Counted from the stretch's first letter, positions 4,963 through 31,036 are shown. The stretch: 54,253 bases of DNA from a virus (IMGVR_UViG_3300037258_001211:1-54253); one strand, 5' to 3'. Program-made: numbers and translations. Notes: generated by a model not told the origin, from the sequence alone.

Positions 4963-7314
4963 TCAAGGAACATTAGCTATAGTGGCGGCCCATTTGACAG
5001 TTGCCGTACTCGCGGCGCTAGATGAAGGGACCACCTTTATCGACCAAGTATCGCCCGCCGCAAAATTCACCGAACCACTTCCGACGCCAGTTGCATTGGT
5101 TCCCGAAATGGTACACGTCATTGATTGATCCGCATTTCCTTTTGTCATCGTAAGCGTGATCGTCTGTCCGGCGCCGGGAGCGGTCGGGGTGCTACAACCG
5201 AAATTACTCATCCGCGACGGTATGGCAATGTTGGCGTTCGTCAAACCCTGAGAAGCATTGCTGATAGCGCCGACTCCGACGAACAACGTTCCGCCACCCC
5301 CAACCACAGCGGCGGCGGTATTGCCTCCGATCGAGGTCCGGTTTGGATAGATCGTGTTTGAGGCGCTGTCGCTCAGATTAACGGTATTGCCTGACCACAC
5401 ATTCGGCCCGATTGTCCAGCCCGTTGCACTCGACCCCAGCGTGACGCCCGCCGCAAGAGAGAGAAATTCGTTTCCCTGAATAATGCCGGTGCCTGCGTTC
5501 TGATCAATCAGAATGCCGGTGCCGTCACCCGGTGTCGGCGATGTGCTGAAGTTGTTGTTGTTGAAAACGAAGTGGCTCGCGTTCGACGAATTTACGTGGA
5601 TGCCCACATTACCAGATTGAATGACATCGAACTCGTTTCCGCTGACGATCATGCCGCCAATCAAACCGGTCACGAGGATAGAGTCGCCGGTATTGAGGCC
5701 GAATTCGTTATTGCTGATATTGAGGGCCGTGCCACCGGCACTGCCGTTGACAATAACGCTAGTCAACACCTCATCCAGGGCGGAATTAACGATCTTTACA
5801 CCTTGCACATAACTACCGTAGATGATGCCGTAACGTCCTCCAATTACACGGACGCCGTTGAAATCATGATCAACGGACTGAGATGCTGACGACAAACCCG
5901 CGAGGGAAAAGCCGTCACCATTTGAACCTGTGGTGCCCTGGAATATCGTCACTCCGTCATAGGCTATGTCGGATATTCCCTGCTCGGCAAAGGCTGTCGT
6001 CCAGTAATCAGTGGTTCCCGAGCCATCTCCACCACGGAACGTGACGTTCGTAAGGGATGTTTGCGCCGACCCGGCTTCATTGCCGACGCTGGTGTTGAGT
6101 TGGACCAGCGAAAGGCCCGTGCCGCCGCCTGCGTTGTTGGTTTTGAACGTCAGGTCATTGTTTGTGAGGCTCGCGTGTTCGTCGGTATAGCTGAGTTGTA
6201 ACCCGCCGCTCGCCGCTGCCCACGCCAGTATCGAAACATCTTGCCCGGCTCCCGACAGGTGAAACGAGGTGGCGGAGGGGATAGTGTTCGTGACCTGAGA
6301 AGTCAGCTTGAACACACCGGCGGGGACGAAGACCCAATTCCTACCCGACGCCAAGCTCGCGGTGATCGCATTGCTGATCGCGGTAGTGTCGTCAGTCGAA
6401 CCGTCCGGAACCGCGCCATATTGACGGATATCGTCATAATGACCCTGCGGGACCGCTTTCCACGAATTGCCATCGCTCGCGTCGACACAAGAACCGCCAT
6501 CATCGACCATGCCGTTATCGGAGCAGGTACCGCTTTGCACGATAAAGAACAACGGACCCGCGTGGTTACCATCCGCGAAGTCATCCCGCCAGACGCCATT
6601 TGGATACGTCAGCGTCGAGGCGAGCGCGAGTGCTGCGTTGGTCGCGACGTGGGGCGTGATATTGCTGTTGCCGCTCGTCGTCACCCCCGCGATCGCACCG
6701 CCAGTAATGGCTACCGCGCTCGCGTCCTGTGTCGCGATGGAGCCGAGCCCGATATCGGTGCGGAACTGCGATGCTGTCGTAGTCGAGCCAAGCGCGAAGG
6801 TGGTTGACCCCAGCGTGAACGAGGGCAATACACCGCTATCCGTCAGCAATTTGCCACTCGTCGCGCCGAAGAGCGGAAGATGCCCGGTTACCGCGCTATC
6901 TGGCCCGATCACGTCTCCGAAGCCAGGGCCGGGAAACGGATAGGTCGTGCCGTTCACGCGGACATGCAGAGCCTTGTCCAGAAGACCCCCATAGCTGTCG
7001 AGCGTGATGAGACCGTTGCCGCTGCTGTCGTGACCGAGGCACAGCGCGTTGTACTGGCTTCCCGTGTTTACCGTGTTGAAGCACTGGCCGAGCGCCAGGT
7101 TGTCTTGCACCGCAAAGGGATTGAGACCCCGGCCGAGCGGATCGCCCAGAAGACCGCCAACGTCCTGTATCTCCCCATCGCGCGTGATCTTCACCATGTC
7201 GTTAGGCGCGATCATCGTGCCGCGCTGATGGACAGGCGTCGATTGTGCCCAAGCGAGCGACGGGAGAAGCACCAGCACGGCAAGCGCGCGGAGCATCAAG
7301 GTCTTCGTGGTCAT
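4963..7314 (-). CDS. Tailspike/depolymerase-like beta-helix protein 1 with N-terminal signal peptide
   Basis: DIRQYGAVPDGSTDDTTAI...VFVPAGVFKL (Pectate_lyase_3-like); Asn/Gly/Ser-rich beta-helix; AGGAG RBS before ATG 7314. Confidence 0.85.
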   Translation of the reverse strand: MTTKTLMLRALAVLVLLPSLAWAQSTPVHQRGTMIAPNDMVKITRDGEIQDVGGLLGDPLGRGLNPFAVQDNLALGQCFNTVNTGSQYNALCLGHDSSGNGLITLDSYGGLLDKALHVRVNGTTYPFPGPGFGDVIGPDSAVTGHLPLFGATSGKLLTDSGVLPSFTLGSTTFALGSTTTASQFRTDIGLGSIATQDASAVAITGGAIAGVTTSGNSNITPHVATNAALALASTLTYPNGVWRDDFADGNHAGPLFFIVQSGTCSDNGMVDDGGSCVDASDGNSWKAVPQGHYDDIRQYGAVPDGSTDDTTAISNAITASLASGRNWVFVPAGVFKLTSQVTNTIPSATSFHLSGAGQDVSILAWAAASGGLQLSYTDEHASLTNNDLTFKTNNAGGGTGLSLVQLNTSVGNEAGSAQTSLTNVTFRGGDGSGTTDYWTTAFAEQGISDIAYDGVTIFQGTTGSNGDGFSLAGLSSASQSVDHDFNGVRVIGGRYGIIYGSYVQGVKIVNSALDEVLTSVIVNGSAGGTALNISNNEFGLNTGDSILVTGLIGGMIVSGNEFDVIQSGNVGIHVNSSNASHFVFNNNNFSTSPTPGDGTGILIDQNAGTGIIQGNEFLSLAAGVTLGSSATGWTIGPNVWSGNTVNLSDSASNTIYPNRTSIGGNTAAAVVGGGGTLFVGVGAISNASQGLTNANIAIPSRMSNFGCSTPTAPGAGQTITLTMTKGNADQSMTCTISGTNATGVGSGSVNFAAGDTWSIKVVPSSSAASTATVKWAATIANVP

Positions 7315-7387
7315 GGCGCTCCTGATGTGCTGGGCATAGCCAAGGGAGGCGCGAGTTGCGCCTTGAGCTGCGTCGATCAACTTTCGG

Positions 7388-10300
7388 CTATTGGGTTAGG
7401 GCGGCTGCCTTGGCCTGATTGGCCTGAGCCATGATGTCGTTCGCGCCGCCGAAACTCTGCGTCATCACCGTGACCGCTGCGGCTTCGCGCCAGCGCTCGA
7501 CCGTATCCTTGATCTGTTTTATCCGCACGCCGGCCGGTATCATGCTGTTAAACGCGGGCGACACCATCGCGTCGAGTTCCATCTTGATCATGCGCCCCGA
7601 GATCCGGGCATAATCGTCGTACTGCTGCGGGGTAAGCTGAACTCCTCGGATTTTCCGCGACACAGGACCGATCCCGATATGCAGCGCATCCATCGCCTGG
7701 ACGACCTTATCGTTGGCGTAGCGATCGACGGTTCCCGAACCTGTCGTAATCGGCTCGCCGAAGATGTCGCGGCGGGGATAGAGGGTTTCCGAGACAAAGG
7801 GGATATGGGCGCGGGCGGCGTCAAGGATGCCTTGGGCCTCGGTCGATTCACGGGTCTCGCGCTGATAAGGGTCAACGAACCGCGCGGCCTGTCCTAACCC
7901 GACCGAGAACGGCAACCAACTCGTCGCGAAATTCTGTATCCAGCGGTCGCCGTATTCCTCGGGATGATAGATCGCGTCGGTGAGGTCTTTGACGCCGCGC
8001 ATGAAGGTCTCGTCGAGAACCGAATGCGTGAGGCTTTCCATGAACGCCGCCGCGAGGTGCGCGCCGTCCTTTTCGCCCCAGCCCCGCGCCGTTTCGGTCA
8101 TGTTGGAGGCAAACCGCATCAGCATCCCGAGATGCCCGAGCCCCTGATACGAGAGCGTGATCGGTCCGACCGACATGCTATTCGGGCGATGATCGAGGAG
8201 CCAAACACGCCGCTGCTCGGGATCGGTCGGGCCGTCGCCGGTGATGAAGCCTTCCAGAACCCCGACCATCGCCGTCGCCATAAGCCCAGTTCCGGCCACG
8301 ACCTTGCCGATTTGCCTATCGAACGCGGCCCCCCCGCTTTGCATTGTCAGATTGCCGCGAACCTCACTCGACGCGAGCCCAAGCGGTGTCCGCTCGACGA
8401 AAGCGTTACGGACGATCTCAGAGCCGATCCGCATGAAGGGGGCGATGATCTTTGCCGGGAGCCAGCTGTTGGTAAATCGTGTTAGTGCCGCGCCCGCCGA
8501 ATGATAATCTTGGGGCCGCATGTAAAGCTCTTTCAGAGCGTTCCCGGCGGCCTCTTCCATCATCTCCGGCGTCGGGCTTTCGGTCAGTCTCGCGACGTGG
8601 AGATCGCGCGCATCGCCTTCCAGCCCCTTCGCCAAGGCATCACGCATCGCGAGCCCCTGGATTTCTTGCTCGTAACGGATTGCCTTGAAAAACGAGTGGA
8701 TCGAGCCGACCGCACGGCCTGGCGTTCCGAGCACTTTGCCGATACGCCCAGGGATGGGGATCAGAAGGCTTTGATCGATCATCCGGCTCGGAATGCGCTC
8801 GCCCGGCAGCGGCTTTGAATTCCAGTATTTCCACGCCTCGATCGCGGCCGGAATGCCTTCCCGGAAACCTTTTGCCAACCCATAGAGCTGCGCGCTGGCC
8901 TCGGCGAAATGCACCCGATCCGCCACGGGAATGCCTAGCGCTTCACGCGCCGCGCCCGACGTTGCCGCGATCGGCATCTCAACAAGAGGCGTCCATAGCG
9001 CATTAATCGCGTTGCCGACCGAGTAACGAAGATGGGTCAGCGGCCCCGAGATCAGCGCGTTGATGTAGTAGAAGACGATCGCGTTCCTGATCTTGCCATT
9101 CGCCGTGTCGCCGACAAACCGGCTGATCTGCCCGGGAGTCCGCAACGTGCTGCCGAATCGCGCCATCAAACGAAGCTGGTTGAGGTCGCGGCCTGTGTTC
9201 TGCTTGAGAAACTGGTTGAGGTCGCGGGTTTGTTCCCAGCCTTCCAGATTGCGGAACGCCCGGCCAGCGCGGCCCCATTCAGCCGTCGCCTGGGCAACCT
9301 TGCCCTGGATCATCTCATGCCGCGCCAGCTTCTTGGCAAGCCCGGCAAGGTCGGCGTCTGTCCCGCTGGCGGCCTTCTCCATCGCGGCTCGCACATCTGA
9401 AGCGGATTGCACAAGCATCTTGCGGGCGGCAAGGATTTGCTCGGCGCTGAATGCGTCGCCGATCTTCTTCCGATCGAGAAACGCGGGGTCTTTGCCCACC
9501 GCATCGGCGAGGTCGAGCATCTGACCATCGCTGATTTCGCCGCGCCGCTGGGTGACGAAATCGCCGTTGCGCTCGGCAACGTCGCGGAAAACCTGATCGA
9601 TATCTTCGGGCTGGTTGAGGTTGTCGAGCCGGATGTTGCCGGCCTTGTCGATCAGTCCGTCGTCTGTCGGCCCGAAGCTGGCGTTTGGCTCGGTGGGAGC
9701 TTCACCAGTTGACGCACCGCTGCGTCTTGCAGTCCCAACGCTGCGTCCGCCTTGTCGAACGCCGCCTTGTACAGCTTCCTCGCCCCCTGCGGGAGGTCCG
9801 GGTGGTTCAGAGCCGCCTTCGCCTTTCGGCGCATTTCCAGCAGCCTCTGTCTCCGACTTATAGGCATTTTCCAGATCCTCTAAGGATCGCGTGTTATCTG
9901 TATCATGAATCGCGTCCGGTTCCCATGCGTCTCCGCGAGACTCCATGAATGCTTTGGCGCGCTCGTCAGCTGCCGCGAAATCACGCTCGGCCTCGGCATC
10001 CATTGCGCCGATTTCGCGAGCGCGTTCCTCCATTGACAATTGTTCGGCGGCTAGATCGAAAAACTGCTCGCGGGTATAGTCGCGCGGGTCAACACCGAGC
10101 ACGTTCGCGATGCGGTCGATCTCCGCGTTGCTGCCCAGCGCCTTTTGATAAGCGTCCACGGCTGCGGCATCGTGCACGGAATAGCGCGGCTCGCCATTCA
10201 GATCAGCGCGAATAGCCTCGTACAAGTCGTTGATTGTCGGACGCTCAGAGTGTTCGGGGAAGTACCCCTCTTCCCATGCTTTTAGAGCCGCGTCGTCATG

Positions 10301-12484
10301 CGACATGCCCGTTCGGGCTTTGATAAGGCCCTTCGCATTAGGGTGATCGGCGATGGTCCTGATGTCGCTAGGATTGGCTTTGGCGTCTTCTCGCCCGCGC
10401 GCCGTGTTGACGCGACGCGAAAAGGTATCATCCCGTAGGCCGCCATTCTTCTTCAGCCAGTCCACGAGCCGCAGCGGAGCGCGAGGAACGGGAGCATAGA
10501 CGGACTTTGCACCACTCGCGGTCGGCCCCAACTCCCGCGCAGCACGAGGCGGCGTTTCCGGTGCAATGACCGGCTTTTCATCCTTGGTCGCGAGCATCCG
10601 GTCGAACACGCCCCGGATGTCATCATTGATCGGCGACCGCAGTTGCGTGGCCGTCTGATAAATGCGGGTCAGCCAGTCGCGGAACTTGGCGAAGACGCCA
10701 GCCAGTTTCGCGGAGGGAGCATGGCCCTCCATCATATAGCGCTCGAAACCGCGGGCGAACTTCTCGTGCGCCTTGGTCGGGATTTCCTCGCCGGATTTCG
10801 TGCCGAGCCAATCGTGAATGGTCTGTGCGTCTGCTTTCAGATCATCAGGTGCGCGCGGATCAGCGGCGTCGCCCATCATCTCTTCAAGCCAAGCGTGACC
10901 CGTCTCGTGGACGAAGGTCGAGGCATCGGCATCCTTGAACAGCTTGATCGTGGCCTTGGCGTTGTCGGTCGCGAGGCGGATGCTGCCCCGACGGGTTTGG
11001 TTGAGAGTCTGCGCCATCTCCATCGCCGGCTGTACGCCACGTCCGGCTTTTACGGCCGGGGCTTCTGCCGAATAGAGGTCTTCTGCCGTTCCCTTCGCGC
11101 CCTCAAACCGAGCGGCGCGCGCTTCGTAATGCGCCTGCACAAGTGCCCCGGCCGCGTTCGCTTCCTCGGCCGGGCGGCCAGCGGCGGCAAGCTGTTTCGA
11201 CACATCGCCCGCGATGCCGCCTTCGATCGGTGCGGCTGGCGTCCGCGCCTGAGTTTTAGCGGGCGCAGAAGCCGGTTGCGCGGTCGGGGCCGGCTGTTCA
11301 CTCGGAACCGTCGCCTCCGCCGCTGTGGCGGGCACCTGTGGGGTTGTTTGCTCAGGGCCGGCTTGCGGTGCGGTTTCGGGAACAGGTGCCTCTACGGGCT
11401 GCGCAGCGGGTTCCGCAGCCTGCGTCTCGGGGAACTGTTCGGCGGCTTGACGGTAGGCTGCCGACACGTCAGGCGCGAGGTCGCGCATCTGCACGTCCGT
11501 CGCCTGCATATCTTGCCTGATCTTCGCCATCTCTGGCGTATCGGTCGAACGCGCATCCGCAAGCGCTCGTGCTGCGCGGTCGGTCAGCCGGCTCTCGACG
11601 CCGTTCACCTTATCGAGGATGGCATTGACCTGTTGGTTGCGTATCTCGTCGATCCACTGACGGAACGTGTCACGCTGGCCGGACAGGGCGTCGTACTCGG
11701 CGAATGTGTCCGGAGCGATCTGGCGCGCGGCCTCGTGGATATCGGCAGGCGGCTGCTGCGGTGTTGGCGCTTCTGGAGCGGCTTCTGGCACCGGCGCTTC
11801 AACAGGCGCGGCTTGTGGCTGCACAACGCGCTCCGTTGCGCTCGGAACGCCGGTCGGGGCGAGAGCTTGGGTTGCTTCCGGCAAGCCCTGATAGCCCGCT
11901 TCGCCAGCGCCGACCGTCTTCAAATCGGCCGCACGCGCCAGCGTTGGCGGCAATTGCCCATGCGCCGCGTAATCCTGCGGGGTCGGTATGTTCACAGGCA
12001 ATCCCGTGAGATGCCCGGCGGGGAATGCCTCCATCAACGCTTGCGTGGTGGCAGCGGCAGCGCCGACCAGGCCCGGCACTTGCTCAGCCTCGCTGAGCGC
12101 CGCGCCACCAGCGCCCATGATGCCCTTTGCCGTTCTGGTGGCGGCATCGATGGCGACCGCCGCCGGTCGGATCAGCGCCTCGTTGAACGACTTGTAGAGG
12201 CTCGCCCGATTGTTCTGGTAGTCGTTGAAGACGCCGGCCTTTTTCAGCATCTCCTCGCCTTCGGGATCGAGCCCAAGAGGCGTTGAGCCCCACCCGCTCT
12301 TGAACCCCTGCCCCAGTACGTCGAGAATTCGCCCGGGTGTTCCCTGGCTGAAATACTCGTCCATGTCCGCGCCGCCGAGCGCGAGATCGTTCGTATTGAC
12401 CGGAGCCGGCCCGAACGCCTGCGTCGCGGTCGGAACTGGCTTCGGCCCGAACGCCTGCGTCGCTGTGGGAAGTTGGTCGGCCAT
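7388..12484 (-). CDS. Large internal virion/ejection protein (polyvalent, HExxH motif)
   Basis: 1698 aa; ADASTFVHETGH motif; third gene of the ejection cluster. Confidence 0.8.
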   Translation of the reverse strand: MADQLPTATQAFGPKPVPTATQAFGPAPVNTNDLALGGADMDEYFSQGTPGRILDVLGQGFKSGWGSTPLGLDPEGEEMLKKAGVFNDYQNNRASLYKSFNEALIRPAAVAIDAATRTAKGIMGAGGAALSEAEQVPGLVGAAAATTQALMEAFPAGHLTGLPVNIPTPQDYAAHGQLPPTLARAADLKTVGAGEAGYQGLPEATQALAPTGVPSATERVVQPQAAPVEAPVPEAAPEAPTPQQPPADIHEAARQIAPDTFAEYDALSGQRDTFRQWIDEIRNQQVNAILDKVNGVESRLTDRAARALADARSTDTPEMAKIRQDMQATDVQMRDLAPDVSAAYRQAAEQFPETQAAEPAAQPVEAPVPETAPQAGPEQTTPQVPATAAEATVPSEQPAPTAQPASAPAKTQARTPAAPIEGGIAGDVSKQLAAAGRPAEEANAAGALVQAHYEARAARFEGAKGTAEDLYSAEAPAVKAGRGVQPAMEMAQTLNQTRRGSIRLATDNAKATIKLFKDADASTFVHETGHAWLEEMMGDAADPRAPDDLKADAQTIHDWLGTKSGEEIPTKAHEKFARGFERYMMEGHAPSAKLAGVFAKFRDWLTRIYQTATQLRSPINDDIRGVFDRMLATKDEKPVIAPETPPRAARELGPTASGAKSVYAPVPRAPLRLVDWLKKNGGLRDDTFSRRVNTARGREDAKANPSDIRTIADHPNAKGLIKARTGMSHDDAALKAWEEGYFPEHSERPTINDLYEAIRADLNGEPRYSVHDAAAVDAYQKALGSNAEIDRIANVLGVDPRDYTREQFFDLAAEQLSMEERAREIGAMDAEAERDFAAADERAKAFMESRGDAWEPDAIHDTDNTRSLEDLENAYKSETEAAGNAPKGEGGSEPPGPPAGGEEAVQGGVRQGGRSVGTARRSGASTGEAPTEPNASFGPTDDGLIDKAGNIRLDNLNQPEDIDQVFRDVAERNGDFVTQRRGEISDGQMLDLADAVGKDPAFLDRKKIGDAFSAEQILAARKMLVQSASDVRAAMEKAASGTDADLAGLAKKLARHEMIQGKVAQATAEWGRAGRAFRNLEGWEQTRDLNQFLKQNTGRDLNQLRLMARFGSTLRTPGQISRFVGDTANGKIRNAIVFYYINALISGPLTHLRYSVGNAINALWTPLVEMPIAATSGAAREALGIPVADRVHFAEASAQLYGLAKGFREGIPAAIEAWKYWNSKPLPGERIPSRMIDQSLLIPIPGRIGKVLGTPGRAVGSIHSFFKAIRYEQEIQGLAMRDALAKGLEGDARDLHVARLTESPTPEMMEEAAGNALKELYMRPQDYHSAGAALTRFTNSWLPAKIIAPFMRIGSEIVRNAFVERTPLGLASSEVRGNLTMQSGGAAFDRQIGKVVAGTGLMATAMVGVLEGFITGDGPTDPEQRRVWLLDHRPNSMSVGPITLSYQGLGHLGMLMRFASNMTETARGWGEKDGAHLAAAFMESLTHSVLDETFMRGVKDLTDAIYHPEEYGDRWIQNFATSWLPFSVGLGQAARFVDPYQRETRESTEAQGILDAARAHIPFVSETLYPRRDIFGEPITTGSGTVDRYANDKVVQAMDALHIGIGPVSRKIRGVQLTPQQYDDYARISGRMIKMELDAMVSPAFNSMIPAGVRIKQIKDTVERWREAAAVTVMTQSFGGANDIMAQANQAKAAALTQ
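12407..12463 (-). repeat. 21-bp direct repeat (36-bp period) encoding PTATQAFGP twice
   Basis: cggcccgaacgcctgcgtcgc at 12407 and 12443. Confidence 0.85.
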
Positions 12485-14808
12485 CAGCGGAGCGGCACTT
12501 GCGGTTGGTATCCTGTCGGAGGCGGGGGCGCCCCATCAGGTACGATCCACCCTTTCTGGATCGCCGTCGCAATCGCGCGGTCGCGGAGGGCCGGGTCTTT
12601 CGCCACTGCCGCTTTCATGTCATCGAGGCTCGTGATCGCGTTGAGATCGATAGGATTGGTCGCCCCGAATGCGCCCTGTGCTTGGCTGCCGCTATCCATC
12701 GACTTCGTGTAATCAGAAAGCGCCTGCCCCATCGTGCGCTTGAACGGCTGGATCGTCTCTGGTGCACCGAGATAGTCGGGCTTCTTCGGGTTCAGCAGAT
12801 CGTCGGGATTCTTGCCCTGCGCCCGGTATTCGGCGACCTTGCCCTCGACCATCTGGCGATATTCGTAAGCTTTTTCCTTGCCGAGCGCATCGTTGGGAAG
12901 ACCCGGGAAGACGCCCGATTTATCGATCTGCGGTGTGATGCCCGTGAAAAACTCCTCCAGTCGTTTGGGGAATGGGTGGTCGCCCGGCGAGGACAACTCG
13001 TCGAACTTCTTCAGCGTGTAGTCGAGATCGGTGCGGTTGAGGCTGTGCATCTGGTCATAGACCTGATCCCGCGTCGTGATCTTGTTTGGATTGCCAAAGG
13101 GTAGCCTCATGCGGTCGATCAACGATTGCGCGGCGTTGTAGCTTTGCCCAGCCGGGACGGTTGAGCCCGGCGGATTGTTGATGAGATCGATCATCGCTTT
13201 GCGACGGTCGGGGTTTCCATCGAAGGCCGGGTCGGTCGCGATCTGCTGCGCCGTGATTGACGGTTGCTGACTGTACACGTCGGCGTAAATTGCGTTTTCA
13301 CGCTGGCGCATCGTGGCTTGTTGGAGTTGCGTCTGCACCTGCACGGCACGCGAGGCATCGGCTTCCTGCGCCTGATAGAGCACCTCGGCGTGGTTGAAGG
13401 CCGCATCGCGCTCCTGATCGTTGCGGAGCGTCGGGTCGGATTGGATGTTCTGCCATACCTGGGTGAGCATCGGCAGGCCGGTGCGGTTCGTTATCGGCGC
13501 GGCGTCAGAGGTGGGCTGAGGCGCAGTCGGCACAGCCGCGCCAACCCGCGACGCCGTGAGTTGCCGCACATCGCCCGCCGTGGCATTGGCGATATTCGGG
13601 TTGGCGTTTAGTACGGCCGGCGGAAAGAGTTGGCTCATCGGCGTGGATGGATCGGCGCTGAGTACCTTCGCCGCCCCGCCGGCACCGAGGAAATGCGCCA
13701 GATACAGCGCGCCATCGTCGGTCGGTAGATTTTGCGCGGTCAGCGATGCCGCGTTCTGCTGGGCGTAAGCCGCAGTCATTTGGCGCGACAGATTGGGATC
13801 ACCCTTCAGCGCCAGAATTTGCGCGTCGCTCTTGCCCTGTGCGACTGCTGGAGCCGCGCTTTTGACCATCGCCAGCCATGTAGAGTCGATGAATTGGCCC
13901 GGCCCACTGGCACTCGACAGCGGATTGCTGACGTTCTGACCGCCGCTTTCCGACCCGATAATGCGATCCGCGAGCGATCCCGAAAGTGCCGGCGTGCCCC
14001 CGGGCGTGCCGCCCATTCCGAGCGCCCGGTTCGCCGCTCCCGCAACCCGCAGTCCGACGCCCTTCGCCTCGGCCTTAGCGCGAATGACTTCCTGTGTGAT
14101 CGGGTCGAGGTCGCCGGCATGTTGGTCAAGTAGCGCGGTCGCCGCCTCGGGCTGCCCAACGTTGATGAGATGGTCCGCGCGCCCCGCGATAAGCTGCCGC
14201 TGCGCGCCCTTCCCGACCGTGTAAGCCTGCTCGTTCGTCAGCGCGCCCGATGCGATGCCCTGTTTGGTGAGGTTGTCGATATTGGCGAGCGCCGCCGGGA
14301 AAGCAACGGGATCAGTCGCCGTCGCGCCTATCTGCGAGAGGTTGTCGAGCTGTGCCTTGGTGCCGGCGACGTATTGGTCGCGGTAGATCGACGTATTGCG
14401 CAGTTGCGCATCGGCTTGGCCTTGCGCTGCGACATGCGCCCGCTCAGCCTGCCACATCTTCGCGGCGCCGGGATCGCTGAACGCGCTGGTCGCATCTTGA
14501 AGCGCCGCGCCATACTGCTGACCGAGCGCCGTCACCTTGGCCGGGTCGGTCTCGGTCTTCATCTGCTCGTTGAGTTGGATAACCTGGCCCGTCAGGTTCG
14601 CATCCGCCGTCGCGCGGTCCATCCGCACCTTGGCGATGTCGCCATAGGCCCCAACGGTCTCCGCCGCTTTCCCGGCCTTCTCCAATCCCTGCCCAAGCCC
14701 ACCCTGTGCCGCGATGACGGGATCGGTGGAATTGAAAGACGGGATCGCACCAGACGGCTGCGGAACAGCCGCCCCAAGCGATGTGAAGTCGGGGAGCGTG
14801 ATCGACAT
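12484..14808 (-). CDS. Internal virion protein with lytic transglycosylase-like domain
   Basis: IIGSESGG...SSASGPGQFIDSTW...LYLAHFLGAGGA. Confidence 0.85.
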   Translation of the reverse strand: MSITLPDFTSLGAAVPQPSGAIPSFNSTDPVIAAQGGLGQGLEKAGKAAETVGAYGDIAKVRMDRATADANLTGQVIQLNEQMKTETDPAKVTALGQQYGAALQDATSAFSDPGAAKMWQAERAHVAAQGQADAQLRNTSIYRDQYVAGTKAQLDNLSQIGATATDPVAFPAALANIDNLTKQGIASGALTNEQAYTVGKGAQRQLIAGRADHLINVGQPEAATALLDQHAGDLDPITQEVIRAKAEAKGVGLRVAGAANRALGMGGTPGGTPALSGSLADRIIGSESGGQNVSNPLSSASGPGQFIDSTWLAMVKSAAPAVAQGKSDAQILALKGDPNLSRQMTAAYAQQNAASLTAQNLPTDDGALYLAHFLGAGGAAKVLSADPSTPMSQLFPPAVLNANPNIANATAGDVRQLTASRVGAAVPTAPQPTSDAAPITNRTGLPMLTQVWQNIQSDPTLRNDQERDAAFNHAEVLYQAQEADASRAVQVQTQLQQATMRQRENAIYADVYSQQPSITAQQIATDPAFDGNPDRRKAMIDLINNPPGSTVPAGQSYNAAQSLIDRMRLPFGNPNKITTRDQVYDQMHSLNRTDLDYTLKKFDELSSPGDHPFPKRLEEFFTGITPQIDKSGVFPGLPNDALGKEKAYEYRQMVEGKVAEYRAQGKNPDDLLNPKKPDYLGAPETIQPFKRTMGQALSDYTKSMDSGSQAQGAFGATNPIDLNAITSLDDMKAAVAKDPALRDRAIATAIQKGWIVPDGAPPPPTGYQPQVPLR

Positions 14809-15554
14809 CAGAGCTGCCCGTAAGGCGCGGAGCCGATCTTCGTGTAGTAGCGAAGAGAGGCCCTATTCGTAGCGAAATTCGAGAATCCGGAGAGCAACGT
14901 CGTCGCGGCGTTGAGCGGGGCAGCTTGGCCGGCACGATTGCCCTGGAATAGATCGATCGATCCTTGGTATTGATCGGCTTGCGCGCGAGACTGGCCGTTG
15001 TAGAGCGCCGTGAGAGCGTTGTAATCGCCCTGTTGCGCCACCTGACCTTCGACGTTCAAGACGCTGGGATCGGTTGCCGAACCGCCCGACGCGGCGGAAA
15101 TCGCCTGATCGCGCGACAGCGTGAATTGGGTTTGCCGATTGGTCTGTTCCTGCTGGCGCTGGGCAGCCGCCGCGTCCTGGTTGGCTTTCTGCTGAAGCGC
15201 TTCGTTCTGGGCCTGTCCCAGCTCTTCCTGATATTTGCCTTGGTCTAGCGCGGATTTCGCCGACAGAGCCGTGCCGCCGATATTGGCGATCGCGCCAAGT
15301 GTGCCGAGAGAGGGAAGTGCAATTGCGGCCGCCGGAACCAGTGATGCGGCTGCAGCTGATCCCGCCGCTGCACCAAAACTCGCCAAACTTACGGGCGCCA
15401 AGGTCGCCGCACCTGCAGACCCCGCCGCGCCAGCCAGCCCCGCCAATTCCCCGATGCCAAAATCATGACAGAGGCTCGGCGGTTCATACCCATCCGCGAC
15501 GGGCATCCCGAGGTCGAGGCTATGCTTGATCAGGCGGAAAAATCGCATTTCCAC
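14808..15554 (-). CDS. Internal virion protein (T7 gp14-like position)
   Basis: Ala/Gly-rich hydrophobic N-terminus, Gln-rich coil, AASGGS motif; synteny. Confidence 0.7.
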   Translation of the reverse strand: MEMRFFRLIKHSLDLGMPVADGYEPPSLCHDFGIGELAGLAGAAGSAGAATLAPVSLASFGAAAGSAAAASLVPAAAIALPSLGTLGAIANIGGTALSAKSALDQGKYQEELGQAQNEALQQKANQDAAAAQRQQEQTNRQTQFTLSRDQAISAASGGSATDPSVLNVEGQVAQQGDYNALTALYNGQSRAQADQYQGSIDLFQGNRAGQAAPLNAATTLLSGFSNFATNRASLRYYTKIGSAPYGQL

Positions 15555-15931
15555 ACAGGGCGCCCATCGTCAGCAGGAGGAAGGGAGAGATCTGGAGCAA
15601 AACCAAGACGGCGAAGCCAGCGTTCGGCGCCCGCGATCCGGTCGCTGCAATAAGCGTGGACAGCGAGCGCACCGTGGGTTTTCAGCCCAGCAATCCAACC
15701 CGATACGGCGCGATGAATGAGGAAGGCGGAGATCGGCCCTCGCGTATCGACCCATGCCCACAGCCTGCCGTATTCGTCGCGGCTGATGATGCCGATCCCG
15801 ATCAACTGCCCATCCTGTTCGACGACTTCACCCCACCAATCGACGCACCAGCGAGGATCCGGATCTCGGCCCGAATAGGCGCGGAAATCATCAGGGTTTG
15901 CCGGGCGGAGGATCTGGCGGGTTCGGCTCAT
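15530..15931 (-). CDS. GNAT-like virion assembly protein (T7 gp13-like position)
   Basis: LIGIGII...AERWLRRLGF; follows tail tubular B. Confidence 0.65.
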   Translation of the reverse strand: MSRTRQILRPANPDDFRAYSGRDPDPRWCVDWWGEVVEQDGQLIGIGIISRDEYGRLWAWVDTRGPISAFLIHRAVSGWIAGLKTHGALAVHAYCSDRIAGAERWLRRLGFAPDLSLPPADDGRPVWKCDFSA

Positions 15932-20718: not shown

Positions 20719-20719
20719 G

Positions 20720-23044: not shown

Positions 23045-23221
23045 GGGAAAGCCCCAAGAAGGTGGGGCGCCTACACAGGTGGCTGCCTGCGACTGCCGAT
23101 GGCCGGCAGCGGATTATTGGTTAATTTGGCAGCGCCTTACGTCCGTGGCTGCGGACGACGGGATAGAAGAGCGGTTATTCGCTAGATGAGCGCCGCTTAG
23201 GTTTGCGATTGTTTATCATGG

Positions 23222-24034: not shown

Positions 24035-24135
24035 GCCCGGCGCGATACAGGGGTACGATGTCGTACACCGGGGCCGATGAAGCTCCTATGTTCGTCCATC
24101 GCGCTCTATCCGCAGTGGCTGCTGCGGAATTCGGT

Positions 24136-26166: not shown

Positions 26167-26172
26167 CGTGTC

Positions 26173-26469
26173 TTACGGGGTGCCCAACTTGGTGCCGGCA
26201 TAGTTGTTTTGGTTGCCCGACAAGAGCGTCGATGCTCGGCCAGAACGCGCTGCCGCAGCTCCGATCGCGCTTTGCTGCGCGGCCAAAGCGGCAGGGTCGT
26301 TCGGATCGGGCATCGGCATCGGAGGCGGGGGAGGCGGAGGCTTTGGCGGCCCGCTGAACAGCGATTGATAGCGCTTCCGCTCAACCGTGAACGGTGCCGC
26401 TATCCGCACGCCCGCGCGCCAATGGCTATGACGCCGGCCATCAGCCAACGTCGCGAGCAGAGCAGACAT
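26173..26469 (-). CDS. Small Pro-rich virion protein preceding portal
   Basis: SLFSGPPKPPPPPPPMPMPDP...SGRASTLL...KLG. Confidence 0.7.
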   Translation of the reverse strand: MSALLATLADGRRHSHWRAGVRIAAPFTVERKRYQSLFSGPPKPPPPPPPMPMPDPNDPAALAAQQSAIGAAAARSGRASTLLSGNQNNYAGTKLGTP

Positions 26470-26870
26470 CAGCCGTAATTCCCGGCCGCGAGGGTCAGCG
26501 GGACATACACGATCCCGTCGATCTCGACGCAGACCTTGAACGCGGTCTTCGACGTATCGGTGATCGACAGCTCATAGGTGCCGTTGGCGATGTTTTGCAC
26601 CATCAGCGCCTTTTTCGCGACGAAGGTGCTGAGGATTTGGCCCGTGGTGCCAGCGGTCTTGTCCGTGACCGTACCCGAGGCCGTCGTCGCCGTGAGCCCG
26701 AGCCCCGTCGCGCTGTCGCTCAGGTACACCAAAAACGATTTCGGGCCAACTGGCTTGCCGTTGTTGTTCTTCAACGTCAGCGTCACGAGCGTGGCGTTCG
26801 AGCCATCGGTCGCCACCACCGCCGTCACGTAATGCGGGCGATCGTACATCCACTGTTGAGAATCCGGCAT
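26469..26870 (-). CDS. Thr-rich beta-sandwich putative structural protein
   Basis: 133 aa, GAAAGG RBS, between TerL and portal. Confidence 0.7.
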   Translation of the reverse strand: MPDSQQWMYDRPHYVTAVVATDGSNATLVTLTLKNNNGKPVGPKSFLVYLSDSATGLGLTATTASGTVTDKTAGTTGQILSTFVAKKALMVQNIANGTYELSITDTSKTAFKVCVEIDGIVYVPLTLAAGNYG

Positions 26871-26891
26871 GACAGAGACCTTTCGTAAGAA

Positions 26892-28526
26892 TTACCGACG
26901 CCGCTTGACGCGCTCATACCCAACCCGGGCCTTCGTCTGGAGAGGTTGCGGCATTCCCCGCATCGCCGCTCGCTCATCACCGTGTGCCCAGGCCATGACC
27001 ACGGCATCCGCCTTATCGGGAGACCGGCCCAACCGCTTCCGGATCTGCTCTTTCATCTCGATCTGGATCGTCTTCGCTTCCGGCACTCGTTGCGGCATCG
27101 CCAGTTCGGCGGCCAACTCCGGGTCAGGGGGAAGCGCGATATCGGCGCCAGTCTCGGGGTCCAAGGCTTCACGGAAGCGCCACCATGCTTCTGCGCGCTT
27201 ATTGGCGAACCGCTCGATCCCGTTCGCGCTCATCGCGTGGCTTGGGCCGATCCCAAAGAACCCCACAACCCCATCCTCGGGGAGTTGTGTGCGGAGATGC
27301 CCGTAAGCCGTCGAGCCCCAACCACCGCCGAGATCGATAACCACCGTGCAGCCATCCCGCATGACGCTGAACACATGCCCCGCGACCGCAGGCCCATCCT
27401 TCGTGTCGACCCCATCGACCGCTTTTACAGGCGCGAACCAACTGCCGTAGCGTGGGGCGAGGGTCGTGCGATCGGGACCGCCTTGCGCGACATCGACACC
27501 TAACGCCGTCATCGGCATCTTCGGGTGTTCCGGCGTCCACCTCAGCCGCGCCAGTCTGATCCAATCCGAGGGGATGACTTGCCATGCCGCATCCTCGCGC
27601 CCGGCGAAGAAGTCACCCTTGAGAAGCTGAGAACGAAGCGGTTCCGGCAGGTTTTGCAGTGTCGCCCGGTAGTCTGTCCGAGCCAGAAAAGGGTTATCGT
27701 CGAGCGTCGCCGGCAGATAGGTCCGCGAGCGCGCCGTATAATCCTCATCGTCGACATGATATGGACCGGGGCCATCGACCCAGCGCGTCTTGCCTTTGAC
27801 GACGATAAACCAGCGCAATTCCCCGGGCTGTGCGGGATTGGGAAACCCCGGATCAAGCCACGGCGCGAACCACTCGACAACCCAAAACCCCTCCGCACCG
27901 CGCGGCGGATTGGATGCCATGATGACGCGGCACCGCTGTTTCGGATCGGTCGATCGTACCCAGCCGATCAGCGCCGAAACCTGTTCCTCCAGAAACTCCC
28001 CGGCTTCATCAAGACCGAGAAAATCACGCGGTCTGCCAGCGTAGTCGTTCCAGTCGTCCGGTTCCCGACAGCCGCCAAGCCGGATCGTCCTTGGCCCTTG
28101 GCTATGTGTCCCGCCGTTCCCTTCGTAGCGCCAGCCGTCACGGCCGAGCATCTGGTGGAGATCGGCGATCAGCCCGTCAAGCTCGGTCGATTGTCGGCGC
28201 AGGATCAACGAACGTTGGTGTTCGGTCGCCGCGCAGCCGAGCAGGAGATACGATTTCGAGCCGCCCGCCTGCCCGCCAAACAGCAGTTCATCCGCGAGGC
28301 TGCGCAACGCCGCCGTCTGCGGGCCAGGGAGCGGGATAAACGGCTGGCTGAGCGCCGAACCCAGCGCCTTGACGACTTGCCCCCGTTGGTCTTCGCTGAG
28401 CCGCGCAAGATCGCCTTCGAGGGTTTTCAGCTGTTCCGTTGCCGGGAGCGACAGGAATTCCGCCAGCGCGTTCGCCCCTACGGCGTCACGATTGGCGCCT
28501 GACGGCTTCACCAGAGCCGCGAGCAA
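26892..28526 (-). CDS. terL: Terminase large subunit
   Basis: Walker A LLFGGQAGGSKS, Walker B LGLDEAGEF, ASNPP, nuclease GVDVAQGG and SPDKADA; start uncertain. Confidence 0.93.
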   Translation of the reverse strand: MLAALVKPSGANRDAVGANALAEFLSLPATEQLKTLEGDLARLSEDQRGQVVKALGSALSQPFIPLPGPQTAALRSLADELLFGGQAGGSKSYLLLGCAATEHQRSLILRRQSTELDGLIADLHQMLGRDGWRYEGNGGTHSQGPRTIRLGGCREPDDWNDYAGRPRDFLGLDEAGEFLEEQVSALIGWVRSTDPKQRCRVIMASNPPRGAEGFWVVEWFAPWLDPGFPNPAQPGELRWFIVVKGKTRWVDGPGPYHVDDEDYTARSRTYLPATLDDNPFLARTDYRATLQNLPEPLRSQLLKGDFFAGREDAAWQVIPSDWIRLARLRWTPEHPKMPMTALGVDVAQGGPDRTTLAPRYGSWFAPVKAVDGVDTKDGPAVAGHVFSVMRDGCTVVIDLGGGWGSTAYGHLRTQLPEDGVVGFFGIGPSHAMSANGIERFANKRAEAWWRFREALDPETGADIALPPDPELAAELAMPQRVPEAKTIQIEMKEQIRKRLGRSPDKADAVVMAWAHGDERAAMRGMPQPLQTKARVGYERVKRRR

Positions 28527-28541
28527 TGTGCCGAGCAGGGT

Positions 28542-28907: not shown

Positions 28908-31036
28908 TGCGTCTGATAGGTGCCGGAGACAATCAGCGTTTCGCCGTCCGCGCCGGGGTAGGTGTTGTCGTAATTATGGATGAGCATCGTCGCGCTATTG
29001 CTCGGGACGAACCCCACCAGCATACTCCCCGAAACCACCGTCGCCTGTCCCGCAACGACCGTCGCTTCCGTCGCCGTGGTCGGCAAAGTGATACTCAGAT
29101 CAGTGGCGCATGACCCGTTAGTCGTATCGGTGATAACGGCCTGGAACGTTGCGATCTTGCGCAGCCTGTCGACCACATAAGTGCCCGTCGCCGTGATATC
29201 CGACTTTGTGCCACTTCCACAGCCAACTGTTGGCGTATAAGTGGTTCGCTGGATCGCTCCGCAATCCGCGCTGTAGGATGCTGTGCTGTTGCCCACCGGC
29301 AAGGCTCCGGGATTTATGCCGGCGTTCTCCGCCGTGCAATTGATCCCATATCCACCATTGTTGATGATGGCCGTCGCGCTCGACGTATCAACAACAACGT
29401 CGCCATCTTCAACAAGAATGCCGTCGGTCCCGGCATTGAATATAAAGGGCGAGGAAATGCTGACCACTCCGCCAGCCATTGCTTTTATGTCGATATTGGA
29501 CGTGGCCGCGCTCGCCACCCATCCGGCGATCTGAATCAAATCCCCGCCGTGGCTATCATTGATCTCGACATTCGGCCCGATCGCCGAGCTATCGATCGTC
29601 GCGCCTTTTTCGAGGAAGATTTCCCGGTTTACCTCATCGGCCAGCGCGTTATCGACCAGCACATTGGTCCCCGCGCTCGTCACGTCGCCGATCAGGTGGA
29701 ACCCACCAAACGCACCGCCAATATGGATGCCCACGGCCATCGCTTTGCCGTTGGCCGGGCTGATCTTGCCCCCGATAATCCAGAAATCAGCTTTGAACTT
29801 ACCGGCGCCGACGCCGCCGTTGACCTCGACACCATCATTTTGCGCCGATGCCTGCCCTTCATACGAAGAGACATGATCGCACTGGTCGCACCACAGCCCG
29901 TTCCAGAGATTGCCGTTACCCTCCTGCCCGTCAATATCGACGTTCCACAGTGAGGTATGCCCGACTTGCTCCAGGTGAAAGGCGGCGCTCGTCGTCATCA
30001 CCGTGTTGGACGCGATCCTGAAATTTTTGAACACGAGCCCTTGCGAGGCAGAGCCAGAAGTCGACCCGATCGCGATAAGGTCGCCAGTGGTCCCGGCGCC
30101 CGTATAGAGGAACCCCGACGCCGGCCCGCTTCCGTAAATGCCCCAGTTCGATGCGCCGGAAGCGCCCCACGCCTGCGCGGTTTCAAAGCCAATCAGACCG
30201 GGGGGTAGGAGCAACTTACCATGATTGGCGACAGCCCACGCCACGCTCGCAGCGAGGGCGGTGCTGTTGTCGGTCGCGCCGCCGTCCGCGACGACGCCCC
30301 ACTCGCGAATGTCTGCCCCTGACGCAGGGAACACAGCGAGCCAGCACTTATTGTCCGCGCTCTTGACCTCTGAGCCGTCATCGCCATTGCCGGTATTGAG
30401 GCCACACGCCGAGCTGCTGGCAATATAATCGAGGGGCGGCACATCGCCCGCCGCATAGAATCCTATGCGTCGCACCCGGGCTGGCATCGATGCGGTCGAA
30501 CGCGCCTTGAGCACGGTGTTCGTTTCGATCAGCGGGGCAAATGTCCCGCCCGCATCCGCCGCCGCAGTGCCATCGGTCGAGTTCCACAACATCCCATTGC
30601 CGACGACCGTGGTTAGCGGGCCGACGACGTTTCCGTTCCCCTGCCCGGGGATCGAATAGGTCTGGCCGTTGATGCGGATGTGCGCCCCTTGATCCGAGAG
30701 ACCAAAGCTGTCGACCGTCAGAAGCGCGTTGCCGTCCGCATCATGACCGAGGCAGAACGCCCGATAATCGCCACCCGTCGCCGCCGTGTTGGCACACACC
30801 CCGGGGCCAAGGCTGTCCTCGACCGCGAACGGGAGAACACCGCGTCCGTTCGCGTCTCCCAGCACATTGCCCGCATCGCCGATCTGACCATCGCGCCAGA
30901 ACTTAGCGAGACCGCCTGGCAGGGTAAGCGTGCCGCTCTGGTACACCGGGACCGATTGCCCGCTCGCCACGATCGGCGTGCAGACTATCGCCAGCCCGGC
31001 AAGCGCCGCGCCGTATCGACGCCCCAACAGGGTCAT
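28904..31036 (-). CDS. Tailspike/depolymerase-like beta-helix protein 2 with N-terminal signal peptide
   Basis: DIREWGVVADGGATDNSTAL...LLLPPG; N-terminal domain homologous to 4963..7314. Confidence 0.85.
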   Translation of the reverse strand: MTLLGRRYGAALAGLAIVCTPIVASGQSVPVYQSGTLTLPGGLAKFWRDGQIGDAGNVLGDANGRGVLPFAVEDSLGPGVCANTAATGGDYRAFCLGHDADGNALLTVDSFGLSDQGAHIRINGQTYSIPGQGNGNVVGPLTTVVGNGMLWNSTDGTAAADAGGTFAPLIETNTVLKARSTASMPARVRRIGFYAAGDVPPLDYIASSSACGLNTGNGDDGSEVKSADNKCWLAVFPASGADIREWGVVADGGATDNSTALAASVAWAVANHGKLLLPPGLIGFETAQAWGASGASNWGIYGSGPASGFLYTGAGTTGDLIAIGSTSGSASQGLVFKNFRIASNTVMTTSAAFHLEQVGHTSLWNVDIDGQEGNGNLWNGLWCDQCDHVSSYEGQASAQNDGVEVNGGVGAGKFKADFWIIGGKISPANGKAMAVGIHIGGAFGGFHLIGDVTSAGTNVLVDNALADEVNREIFLEKGATIDSSAIGPNVEINDSHGGDLIQIAGWVASAATSNIDIKAMAGGVVSISSPFIFNAGTDGILVEDGDVVVDTSSATAIINNGGYGINCTAENAGINPGALPVGNSTASYSADCGAIQRTTYTPTVGCGSGTKSDITATGTYVVDRLRKIATFQAVITDTTNGSCATDLSITLPTTATEATVVAGQATVVSGSMLVGFVPSNSATMLIHNYDNTYPGADGETLIVSGTYQTQ

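Follow-up and report, generated by a model that had tools for sequence, protein, structure and literature searches.

Two tailspike-like proteins of a provirus with a T7-type tail carry predicted Sec leaders and may join the particle from the periplasm

The stretch of DNA analysed here (the window) spans 54,253 nucleotides and represents a provirus with a completeness of 99%, the host of which is probably a diderm, an alphaproteobacterium. Its tail module is of the T7 type, with homologues of the portal, tubular A, tubular B and internal virion proteins encoded in T7 order, as judged from Pfam and PHROG matches (PF12236 and PHROGs 332, 394, 376, 418 and 6651). All genes described below lie on the minus strand. 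Tubular tail protein A, the adaptor (18615..20213; PHROG 394, E 1.9e-53, three matched stretches), is a fusion of three gp11-like domains, and tubular tail protein B, the nozzle (15891..18614; PHROG 376, E 2.5e-137), is 25-31% identical to its nearest cultured relatives. Internal virion or ejection proteins of 248, 774 and 1698 aa are encoded at 7388..15554 (PHROGs 418, 4067 and 6651), the large terminase at 26892..28526 (PHROG 979, E 2.9e-33) and the small terminase at 31136..31672 (PHROG 309, E 5.5e-25). The endolysin (2134..2922; PF08924, E 3.6e-17; PHROG 13480) has no membrane or SAR segment at its N-terminus and was not flagged in the leader scan of the window ORFs; because it lacks an export signal, lysis is expected to depend on holin lesions, and a 90-aa protein with two hydrophobic segments (549..821) is a candidate holin.

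The provirus encodes only two spike-like proteins, of 783 and 710 aa. The gene for the 783-aa tailspike (P0004, 4963..7314) occupies the slot of T7 gp17, right after the internal virion protein genes, and its product matches the pectate-lyase-like family PF12708 (E 1.2e-11) as well as the PHROGs for tail spike protein (1.1e-9) and EPS depolymerase (2.7e-8). An AGGAG ribosome-binding site lies 4 nt 5' of the ATG at 7314. The predicted leader of 23 aa (7246..7314), with a K/R n-region and a hydrophobic core, reads MTTKTLMLRALAVLVLLPSLAWA and is followed by QSTPVHQ, with proline at -7, an A-W-A end and glutamine at +1. The mature protein opens with a module of about 135 aa (6832..7245), which is shared with the second spike, carries the cysteine pair C78/C92 and is predicted to be all-beta (AF2 model, mean pLDDT 75.1).

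The second spike gene (P0005, 28904..31036) sits between the small and large terminase genes, and one further locus, L002, carries a spike in the same slot. The N-terminus of the 710-aa product consists of a predicted 26-aa leader (30959..31036), MTLLGRRYGAALAGLAIVCTPIVASG, ending in A-S-G and followed by QSVPVYQ with Q at +1; GAAAGAGA lies 5' of the ATG. Its shared N-terminal module is encoded at 30548..30958. This protein has no Pfam match, and its beta-helix body is assigned provisionally from an alignment to the 783-aa protein (629 columns) and from similarity at residues 170-233 to the annotated tail fiber proteins of Bcep43 and Bcep781; residues 168-341 also resemble a hypothetical protein from a Shewanella phage. 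The adjacent gene (P0003, 28542..28907) encodes a predicted small secreted protein of 121 aa with 2 cysteines, for which we found one homologue (63% identity) and no Pfam or PHROG match. The first ATG of this gene shares bases with the stop codon of the 710-aa gene (ATGA), and an alternative start at 28883 is preceded by GGGAAGAAAG; both starts yield a leader finishing in RVLIVVAALLLPVAAMA, ending in A-M-A and followed by EPP. The gene stops 15 nt before that of the large terminase. No coding-strand sigma-70-like promoter and no terminator was found between the genes of the stretch from the small terminase through the 710-aa and 121-aa genes to the large terminase.

The original prediction held that these three proteins carry cleavable Sec signal peptides, and the three leader-bearing N-termini are indeed present in the sequence where it had placed them. 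By a rule-based test (an 8-residue window with a hydropathy of at least 1.9, a length of 15-45, small residues at -1 and -3), the canonical leaders among the 67 ORFs of the window belong only to the two spikes and the 121-aa protein; three further ORFs were flagged, two of them for small membrane proteins and one with a start that is probably over-called. The three leaders reach 8-residue hydropathies of 2.75-3.54 and end, at -3 to -1, in AWA (783 aa), ASG (710 aa) and AMA (121 aa), and K or R precedes the hydrophobic core in all three as well as in the listed family members. On the basis of these features they are predicted to be of the Sec/signal-peptidase-I type. A lipoprotein signal was considered and rejected: the lipobox [LVI][ASTVI][GAS]C is absent from the window leaders, the mature chains open with Q or E, and A-I-V precedes the only cysteine of the 710-aa leader. 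A Tat signal was rejected as well, because an arginine pair occurs only in the 710-aa leader (GRRYGAA) and there without the S/T-R-R-x-F-L-K consensus; the leader of the 783-aa protein, like most in the family, is 17-26 aa long and contains K or only one R.

Comparison of the two spikes by BLASTP (E 1e-50) showed strong identity from Q24 and Q27 onwards, so that homology begins at the predicted cleavage site, as had been proposed. Over 127 aa, the mature modules share 52% identity. The proposal that the two proteins then diverge in the beta-helix is only roughly right, as the bodies are still weakly homologous, with 28% identity over the 629 aligned columns and a 46-aa insert in the 783-aa spike. 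It had also been considered that the true starts might lie downstream of the hydrophobic segments; there is no in-frame start between these segments and the QS-PV-Q block, and the spike leaders must therefore be translated.

A profile search recovered 1,373 cluster representatives of the module family at E<=1e-3, from a profile that included leader columns and could thus favour leader-bearing matches. The leader test was passed by 139 of 154 family members, 6 more carry the same segment behind an over-called start, and 2 of the 154 have a hydrophobic start lacking small residues at -1 and -3. Family leaders vary in sequence and keep their n-h-c character and A-x-A end, often with a helix-breaking proline at about -6, and are followed by Q at +1 in 137 of the 154 members. 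In a second collection, unbiased for leaders since the search patterns were placed in the mature part, 45 of 49 module ORFs have a leader, the remainder being 3 truly leaderless proteins and 1 fragment. The module opens with a conserved Q-S-x-P-V-Y-Q-S-G block, and leaderless variants start exactly at the predicted cleavage point. With 3 leaders among 67 ORFs and their recurrence across the family, the leaders of the three window proteins are no chance feature. Among 50,697 records of cultured phages, the module was not found at the sensitivity of tblastn.

The cysteines of the family bear on the compartment in which the spikes fold. Mature window proteins contain 6 and 10 cysteines, and the mean cysteine content of mature family proteins is 1.6%. 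Even counts occur in 126 of 131 mature family proteins of at least 400 aa and odd counts in 5 (binomial p 2e-31, a value that overstates the evidence because the family samples, although cluster representatives, are phylogenetically non-independent); as a control, the other ORFs of the window gave 27 even and 24 odd counts. The module pair is all-or-none, with 2 or 0 cysteines and never 1. It is present in 170 leader-bearing members and absent from 16, whereas in the leaderless set it is present in 4 (3 truncated calls and 1 leader just under the threshold) and absent from 6; the p-values for this association (Fisher, 1.6e-4 raw and 1.1e-6 cleaned) are overstated for the same reason. The six true leaderless proteins contain 0, 0, 0, 1, 0 and 0 cysteines, and one of the cysteine-free members is 568 aa long. 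The QSG-VTPGH sub-family shows a like split: cysteine counts are even, from 2 to 20, in 23 of its 24 proteins with a leader, and lie at 0-2 in 16 of its 17 proteins without one; as an exception, L076:10249-12162 is leaderless yet has 18. Because leaders are conserved, cysteine counts are even and leaderless variants are cysteine-poor, export and periplasmic disulfide folding of the spikes, as predicted from sequence, are well supported, and both spikes very probably fold outside the cytoplasm, in which the rest of the particle is built. The original prediction of export with disulfide formation thus gains strong support at the sequence level, to which the all-or-none behaviour of the module pair also contributes.

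The genes that encode the module always lie within virion modules, either between terminase genes (L002 and the window) or beside tubular-tail genes. The latter arrangement was seen in six loci (L001, L003, L048, L049, L051 and L063), in which the leader-bearing gene is directly upstream of the genes for tubular A, here three separate ones, and of that for tubular B. In another locus, L043, the module stands at the N-terminus of a protein that has no leader and that matches tail-fiber PHROGs. Neither a further receptor-binding candidate nor a carrier of the module motif without a leader turned up in Pfam, PHROG and motif searches of the window. The location in structural modules, the status of the spikes as sole receptor-binding candidates, the module on leaderless tail-fibre proteins and the adjacency to tubular-tail genes favour the reading of the spikes as virion proteins, and gene position together with the modular architecture suggests that they are incorporated into the particle. 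The AF2 model of the N-terminal module has no match among known particle-binding domains; position and analogy suggest a possible docking role, with tubular A as the candidate partner.

We consider it somewhat probable that the two large genes encode receptor-binding tailspikes that are exported by Sec, fold in the periplasm and are joined to the particle at lysis through the N-terminal module. Each spike would comprise a cleavable Sec-type leader, the all-beta module of ~135 aa, a linker and a cysteine-paired, pectate-lyase-like beta-helix body. Synthesized late, alongside terminase and tail proteins, the spikes would pass SecYEG, be cut by signal peptidase I at A-x-A before the glutamine, and be oxidised and folded in the periplasm. 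Spike-less particles built in the cytoplasm would meet them only when the compartments are merged, first by holin lesions and then by lysis, and the module would dock the spikes onto the tubular tail. What the comparative data show is a conserved leader, a cysteine signature and a location in virion modules; that the leader is cut and the cysteines are oxidised, which protein serves as docking partner and when the spikes join are inferences, and addition at lysis in particular is conjectural. We found no published description of a Sec-exported spike route and, for tailed phages, no precedent for a periplasmic spike that joins a cytoplasmic particle at lysis.

Alternatively, the exported spikes could be free depolymerases rather than parts of the virion, cutting host surface polysaccharide in the periplasm or medium so as to ease release, reduce sticking of progeny to debris or block superinfection, with the module serving an envelope function. 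Export signals and paired cysteines would suit any secreted enzyme, the placement of the 710-aa gene between the terminase genes, beside the gene for a small, presumably secreted partner, is moron-like, and the module is missing from cultured phage records and resembles no particle-binding domain in fold. Exported bacterial enzymes of tailspike fold also exist: WceF of Pantoea stewartii is described as a trimeric tailspike-fold glycanase with a cleaved export signal, active outside the cytoplasm (PMC7949094). Unlike the window spikes, however, WceF is of cellular origin, encoded within an exopolysaccharide cluster, and is exported by Tat rather than Sec; it has neither a virion nor an anchor module. 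We regard the free-enzyme explanation as unlikely, albeit worth weighing, since it would leave the provirus without any receptor-binding protein and must contend with the canonical spike slot of the 783-aa gene, the module genes that abut tubular-tail genes in six loci, the leaderless tail-fiber proteins headed by the same module and an insert between the terminase genes that shows no promoter or terminator of its own. Moreover, a conserved N-terminal module with swapped C-terminal bodies is a hallmark of particle-anchored receptor-binding proteins.

Two further explanations concern the hydrophobic segment itself. It could be a signal anchor, uncut or cut late, that tethers the spikes at the periplasmic side of the inner membrane, in the manner of SAR endolysins, until depolarisation of the membrane by the holin frees them or passes them to particles. 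SAR domains have a high content of Gly, Ala and Ser and are not known to contain a signal-peptidase-I site. The family leaders bear the marks of signal peptidase I, namely small residues at -1 and -3 in the 139 members that passed the test, a frequent proline near -6, short cores and a near-invariant Q at +1, which makes an anchor improbable, even though the 2 members without such small residues would accommodate it and tethering would separate an active depolymerase from particles until lysis. Uncleaved Sec-dependent N-terminal anchors are established for P1 Lyz and phage 21 R, which, like Lys44 of fOg44, are made late by the phage, depend on the Sec system of the host and stay outside the cytoplasm until the holin fires (PMC6116005); these are lysis enzymes and differ in this from virion or receptor-binding proteins. 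Finally, the segment could be a structural element, buried in the trimer or in a tail socket, of spikes that fold in the cytoplasm. Virion proteins of tailed phages are normally made, folded and assembled there, and the leaderless relative with 18 cysteines would fit. We nevertheless hold this to be very improbable: unlike a packed helix, the segment varies freely in sequence while its n-h-c layout and A-x-A end are kept, the homology of the two window spikes begins only after it, leaderless variants open exactly at the predicted cleavage point, and the even counts in 126 of 131 proteins, along with the scarcity of cysteine in proteins without a leader, would be difficult to account for in a reducing cytoplasm.

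Podoviruses carry beta-helix tailspikes with an N-terminal particle-binding domain, such as P22 gp9, Sf6 gp14, HK620 gp9 and the epsilon15 tailspike; these are not known to carry a leader, and they fold in the cytoplasm. The window spikes resemble them in combining a conserved N-terminal putative anchor with an exchangeable pectate-lyase-like body (PF12708 and tail-spike PHROGs), and resemble T7 gp17 in gene position, after the internal virion proteins and near gp11/gp12-type tubular tail genes, but differ from the podovirus tailspikes in their leader and in a module without sequence or fold match to them. Also comparable are Bcep781 gp49 and Bcep43 gp48, annotated in GenBank as 'possible tail fiber; possible signal peptide domain'. 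The N-terminus of gp49 reads as a leader ending in A-F-A and followed by Q, its gene sits among tail genes, its body is homologous to the enzymatic body of the L003 spike (E 6e-46), and both Bcep proteins share a 64-aa cysteine-paired stretch with the 710-aa protein (45% identity). However, gp49 has another N-terminal module, made of fibre-like repeats, and belongs to a virulent, contractile-tailed Burkholderia myophage. The MAT fibre proteins of Bdellovibrio share the design logic of the window spikes, but they are cellular and displayed on the surface of the predator (PMC10769870).

Extending the proposed periplasmic route to the family, we suggest tentatively, as plausible if not quite probable, that a large uncultured group of tailed phages builds two-compartment particles, with heads and tails made in the cytoplasm and Sec-exported, leader-cleaved and disulfide-locked spikes, probably with an N-terminal Gln, in the periplasm, the two being joined only when the holin opens the inner membrane. 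Sister lineages encode, right before the exported spike, a small protein without a leader whose N-terminus carries the same putative docking motif of ~30 aa; this protein may hold the docking site, or prepare it, until the holin acts.

Rereading of the sequence gave the same three N-termini as the original prediction, those of the 783-aa tailspike-like protein (7314-4963, minus strand), the 710-aa spike-like protein (31036-28904, minus strand) and a small, predicted secreted 121-aa protein with 2 cysteines (28907-28542, minus strand). The ATG at 7314 is preceded by an AGGAG site and the ATG at 31036 by GAAAGAGA, and the start of the 121-aa gene overlaps the stop of the 710-aa gene. All three starts combine K/R residues, a hydrophobic core and a small-x-small end (AWA, ASG, AMA), a layout that was otherwise found among the 67 ORFs of the window only in two small membrane proteins and one probably over-called start. 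This survey led us to reject a chance origin of these leaders (the predicted N-terminal export signals). Placement of the true starts downstream of the hydrophobic segments was also rejected: no start codon lies between these segments and the conserved QS-PV-Q block, and the leader thus belongs to the protein. Neither a lipobox nor a twin-arginine consensus is present in the leaders, and lipoprotein and Tat signals were rejected accordingly.

The two large proteins were also predicted to become homologous at the cleavage site and to diverge further on. The former holds, with strong identity starting at Q24 and Q27, respectively (alignment E 1e-50), and the mature modules, the N-terminal parts of about 135 aa common to both spikes, being 52% identical over 127 aa. 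The latter holds in part: identity drops past the module, but the bodies still resemble each other weakly (about 28% identity overall), and the 783-aa protein has 46 aa inserted relative to the 710-aa protein.

A word-indexed search with the N-terminal 190 aa yielded 9 relatives, all with a leader ending right before Q-x-x-P-V-Y-Q. The family is far larger than this search showed: profile A1, built from these relatives with the leader columns included, matched 1,373 proteins at E<=1e-3 and 679 at E<=1e-10 among 1.84 billion cluster representatives. We aligned 150 listed proteins of the 1,373 with the 710-aa spike, P0009 (another family protein) and two locus proteins (n=154), and applied the leader rule to the segment ahead of the conserved Q column. 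The rule was passed by 139 sequences; 6 others have this segment too, preceded by an over-called start, 2 lack small residues at -1/-3 despite being hydrophobic, and in 7 the segment is short or absent. Q occupies +1 in 137/154 members. The leader sequences are highly diverse across the family with their layout kept, as is the case for export signals. Because profile A1 held leader columns, a second collection was made from mature-module patterns, which gave 50 viral loci. In 52 loci (the pattern-derived loci plus L001-L003), a leader heads 45 of the 49 module ORFs; of the remainder, 3 truly lack one and 1 is a fragment at a contig end. A large podovirus anchor-module family carrying a leader is newly defined here, and its profile of about 135 aa, with more than 1,000 clusters, provides a concrete handle on such proteins.

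The module has no Pfam match and was not found in cultured phages. In species-representative genomes, 7 pattern matches were obtained, none of which was confirmed by the module alignment scan, and the sub-family alignment A3 gave 83 pattern matches with none confirmed; a 59-sequence full-length alignment was rejected as a locus-scan query for being too diverse. Among the genomes searched, the module was found in none of 19 holding relatives of the large terminase (TerL) and none of 401 sampled Alphaproteobacteria, nor was it present within 10 kb at any of the 22 TerL-relative loci.

The cysteine pattern agrees with the leader evidence (INDEPENDENTLY). The mature spikes of the window contain 6 and 10 closely paired cysteines, and among 131 mature family proteins of 400 aa or more the count is even in 126 (mean 1.6% Cys; binomial p 2e-31, a value that, like those below, is generous because the family samples are not phylogenetically independent). 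In the control, the other 51 ORFs of the window, 27 counts are even and 24 odd. The C78/C92 pair of the module occurs as two or none, never as one (137 versus 17 of 154), and this all-or-none behaviour was also seen in the enlarged set (n=196). There, the pair is present in 170 and absent in 16 leader-bearing proteins, versus 4 and 6 leaderless ones (Fisher p 1.6e-4). Three of the 4 "leaderless" pair-carriers are 5'-truncated calls keeping the end of the leader and the fourth has a leader just below threshold; dropping the former and reassigning the latter brings the association to p 1.1e-6.

The six true leaderless proteins, in which M-x(3-8) runs straight into the conserved block, contain 0, 0, 0, 1, 0 and 0 cysteines, one of these proteins being 568 aa long. 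Such natural leaderless, cysteine-free variants are new. In the QSG-x-VTPGH sub-family, the 24 distinct leader-bearing proteins have 2-20 cysteines, the number being even in 23; of the 17 distinct leaderless proteins, 16 contain 0-2. There is one clear exception to the leader-cysteine rule: the protein encoded at L076:10249-12162 (L076 being one of the numbered viral loci) is leaderless and carries the opening motif, yet has 18 cysteines in about 620 aa. Folding of the leader-bearing members in an oxidising compartment, and of the leaderless ones in the cytoplasm, would be expected to give such a pattern, and the leader-cysteine correlation offers a simple test. Taken as sequence evidence, these data support well the export and extracytoplasmic folding of the leader-bearing spikes, which we consider highly probable.

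Rated 99% complete, this whole IMG/VR provirus record of 54,253 bases consists of a lysogeny/replication part and a minus-strand virion module. The former comprises an integrase gene (51159-52220), HTH repressors, ERF/YqaJ recombination genes, RusA and RNase H (40670-41122, minus strand), and a Fic/DOC-family gene (49130-49576, plus strand) also lies in the early/lysogeny region. The virion module runs from the small terminase gene (TerS; 31672-31136, minus strand) through the genes for the 710-aa spike, the 121-aa protein, TerL, a T7-type portal (PF12236, minus strand), capsid, tubular tail A (the adaptor), tubular tail B (the nozzle) and three internal virion proteins to the 783-aa gene. This last gene thus follows the internal virion proteins in the T7 fibre gene slot, and is convergent with a methyltransferase gene (4063-4962, plus strand), beyond which lie the lysis genes. 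Tubular tail A (18615-20213, minus strand; 532 aa) is a single fusion of three gp11-like domains encoded in L001, L003, L048, L049, L051 and L063 by three separate consecutive genes; in the tubular-A alignment, all paralogues are stacked on one domain. Among cultured phages, epsilon15-like and Pelagibacter podophages have the nozzle proteins closest to that of the window, with only 25-31% identity. Since TerL relatives with 41-54% identity sit in alphaproteobacterial MAGs, most of them Hyphomicrobiales, a diderm alphaproteobacterium is the probable host.

The matches and neighbourhoods of the spikes bear on whether they are virion components or stray secreted enzymes. The 783-aa protein matches PF12708 as well as tail-spike and EPS-depolymerase PHROGs; in the 710-aa protein, residues 170-233 match annotated tail fiber proteins of Burkholderia phages Bcep43 and Bcep781, and residues 168-341 a hypothetical protein of a Shewanella phage. 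In the same six loci with separate tubular-A genes, a leader-bearing gene lies immediately upstream of the three tubular-A genes and tubular B, a tight adjacency that is new, and L002 has it, like the window, between the two terminase genes. In L030, L042, L043, L061 and L065, which belong to other or unrecognised phage types, the neighbours still match tail fiber or virion structural families; L043 also has the module at the head of a leaderless protein with tail-fiber matches. Conserved N-terminal modules with exchangeable bodies are the usual design of particle-anchored receptor-binding proteins. Pfam and PHROG searches gave no other receptor-binding candidate in the window, which also encodes no leaderless protein with the opening motif of the module. 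Between TerS, the 710-aa gene, the small gene and TerL we found no coding-strand promoter-like site or terminator, which weakly disfavours an independently expressed moron. The module-family spikes thus look like virion parts rather than stray enzymes, and their membership of the virion is likely. For the combined reading, in which exported, extracytoplasmically folded spikes also belong to the virion, we lean slightly in favour.

The mature module is predicted as an all-beta domain (AF2, 40 sequences; mean pLDDT 75.1, core 84-92); a model of leader plus module from 11 sequences was discarded (pLDDT 46.9). No convincing fold relative emerged from Foldseek (best E 0.35 in PDB and 0.18 in BFVD), VIA-align (48,161 chains; best Z 4.2, with about 40 residues aligned) or an ESM Atlas look-up (best score 0.89, below the lead threshold), and phmmer of both spikes against PDB sequences gave no match. 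From these searches, neither novelty of the fold nor divergence from known anchors can be concluded.

Ordinary podovirus tailspikes resemble the window spikes in design and position but lack the leader. Bcep781 gp49, for which the GenBank annotation is 'possible tail fiber; possible signal peptide domain', starts with what looks like a leader with A-F-A at its end and Q as the next residue. Residues 129-692, the body of gp49, are homologous to the body of the L003 spike (E 6e-46), so that one enzymatic body would follow a leader in both, behind a myovirus-type fibre stem in gp49 and the podovirus module in L003. Thus, gp49 appears to be a cultured precedent for the leader, with a different anchor. 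In the full-text literature covered, with most subscription journals outside it, no account of the export of tailspikes or fibres was found for any tailed phage, Cellulophaga phages included; the matches concerned endolysins, spanins, an esterase, WceF and Bdellovibrio fibres. Also among the closest kinds, besides these tailspikes and gp49, are the Sec-exported endolysins (PMC6116005), the exported cellular tailspike-fold protein WceF (PMC7949094) and the exported cellular MAT fibres of Bdellovibrio, in which signal peptide, 130-aa domain and fibre follow one another in a strikingly similar way (PMC10769870).

Our comparison provides the leader, its conservation, the cysteine signature and the virion-module location; the later steps of the route proposed here we infer from general knowledge. 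According to the textbook view, tailed phages assemble wholly in the cytoplasm. The spikes would instead be exported by SecYEG, cut by signal peptidase I between A-x-A and Q, and oxidised by the Dsb system, and the N-terminal Gln may cyclise. They could then dock onto the adaptor/nozzle junction, where gp17 of T7 docks, in a last, separable step; in P22, spikes can be added to heads in vitro. Because the endolysin has no export or SAR segment, large holin lesions should be required for lysis, and these would let periplasmic spikes mix with cytoplasmic particles before or as the outer membrane fails. This joining at lysis is the weakest link of the proposal. If periplasmic maturation is true of the receptor-binding proteins in a widespread group of phages, assembly gains a previously unrecognised post-holin step, and the spikes could use disulfides, and perhaps other envelope modifications, for stability in soil and water. 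Active depolymerases would also be present in the envelope before lysis, which could affect receptor destruction and superinfection, and both biotechnological spike expression and host prediction from receptor-binding proteins would have to allow for leaders and oxidative folding.

Several further features were noted. A spanin pair was not identified in the window; a 156-aa coiled-coil protein with a C-terminal hydrophobic segment (3484-3954, minus strand) and a 90-aa protein with two hydrophobic segments (549-821, minus strand) flank the endolysin region and are candidate lysis proteins. The lysis region also contains a tRNA-Leu gene (anticodon TAA; 3151-3237, plus strand), oriented against its neighbours on either side. 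A 133-aa protein (26469-26870, minus strand), whose gene sits between those for the large terminase and the portal, has a weak Ig-like Invasin_D3 match (E 8.6e-4, under the Pfam cut-off) and may be a decoration or accessory protein. No Pfam or PHROG match was obtained for the 121-aa protein, which is translationally coupled to the 710-aa spike; a search of 5.8 billion clusters gave a single homologue, and L002 lacks the protein in the corresponding slot. This protein might partner the 710-aa spike in the periplasm.

At nine loci, the gene right before that of the exported spike encodes a small leaderless protein of about 160 aa with almost no cysteine (L030:9027-9515, L031:9920-10477, L032:9872-10477, L050:9779-10474, L052:9746-10468, L065:8926-9414, L068:9986-10477, L069:9878-10462 and L071:9977-10477). 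It opens with the motif of about 30 aa of the mature spike, LQSG-x-VTPGH..W..G-x-I-x-D-x-G, and might be an adaptor or a place-holder of the docking site. Finally, the G+C content of the window is 0.56 at 4001-6000 versus about 0.62 elsewhere; this stretch takes in the methyltransferase gene and, convergent with it, the 3' half of the 783-aa gene, which suggests a recently acquired receptor-binding body and moron.
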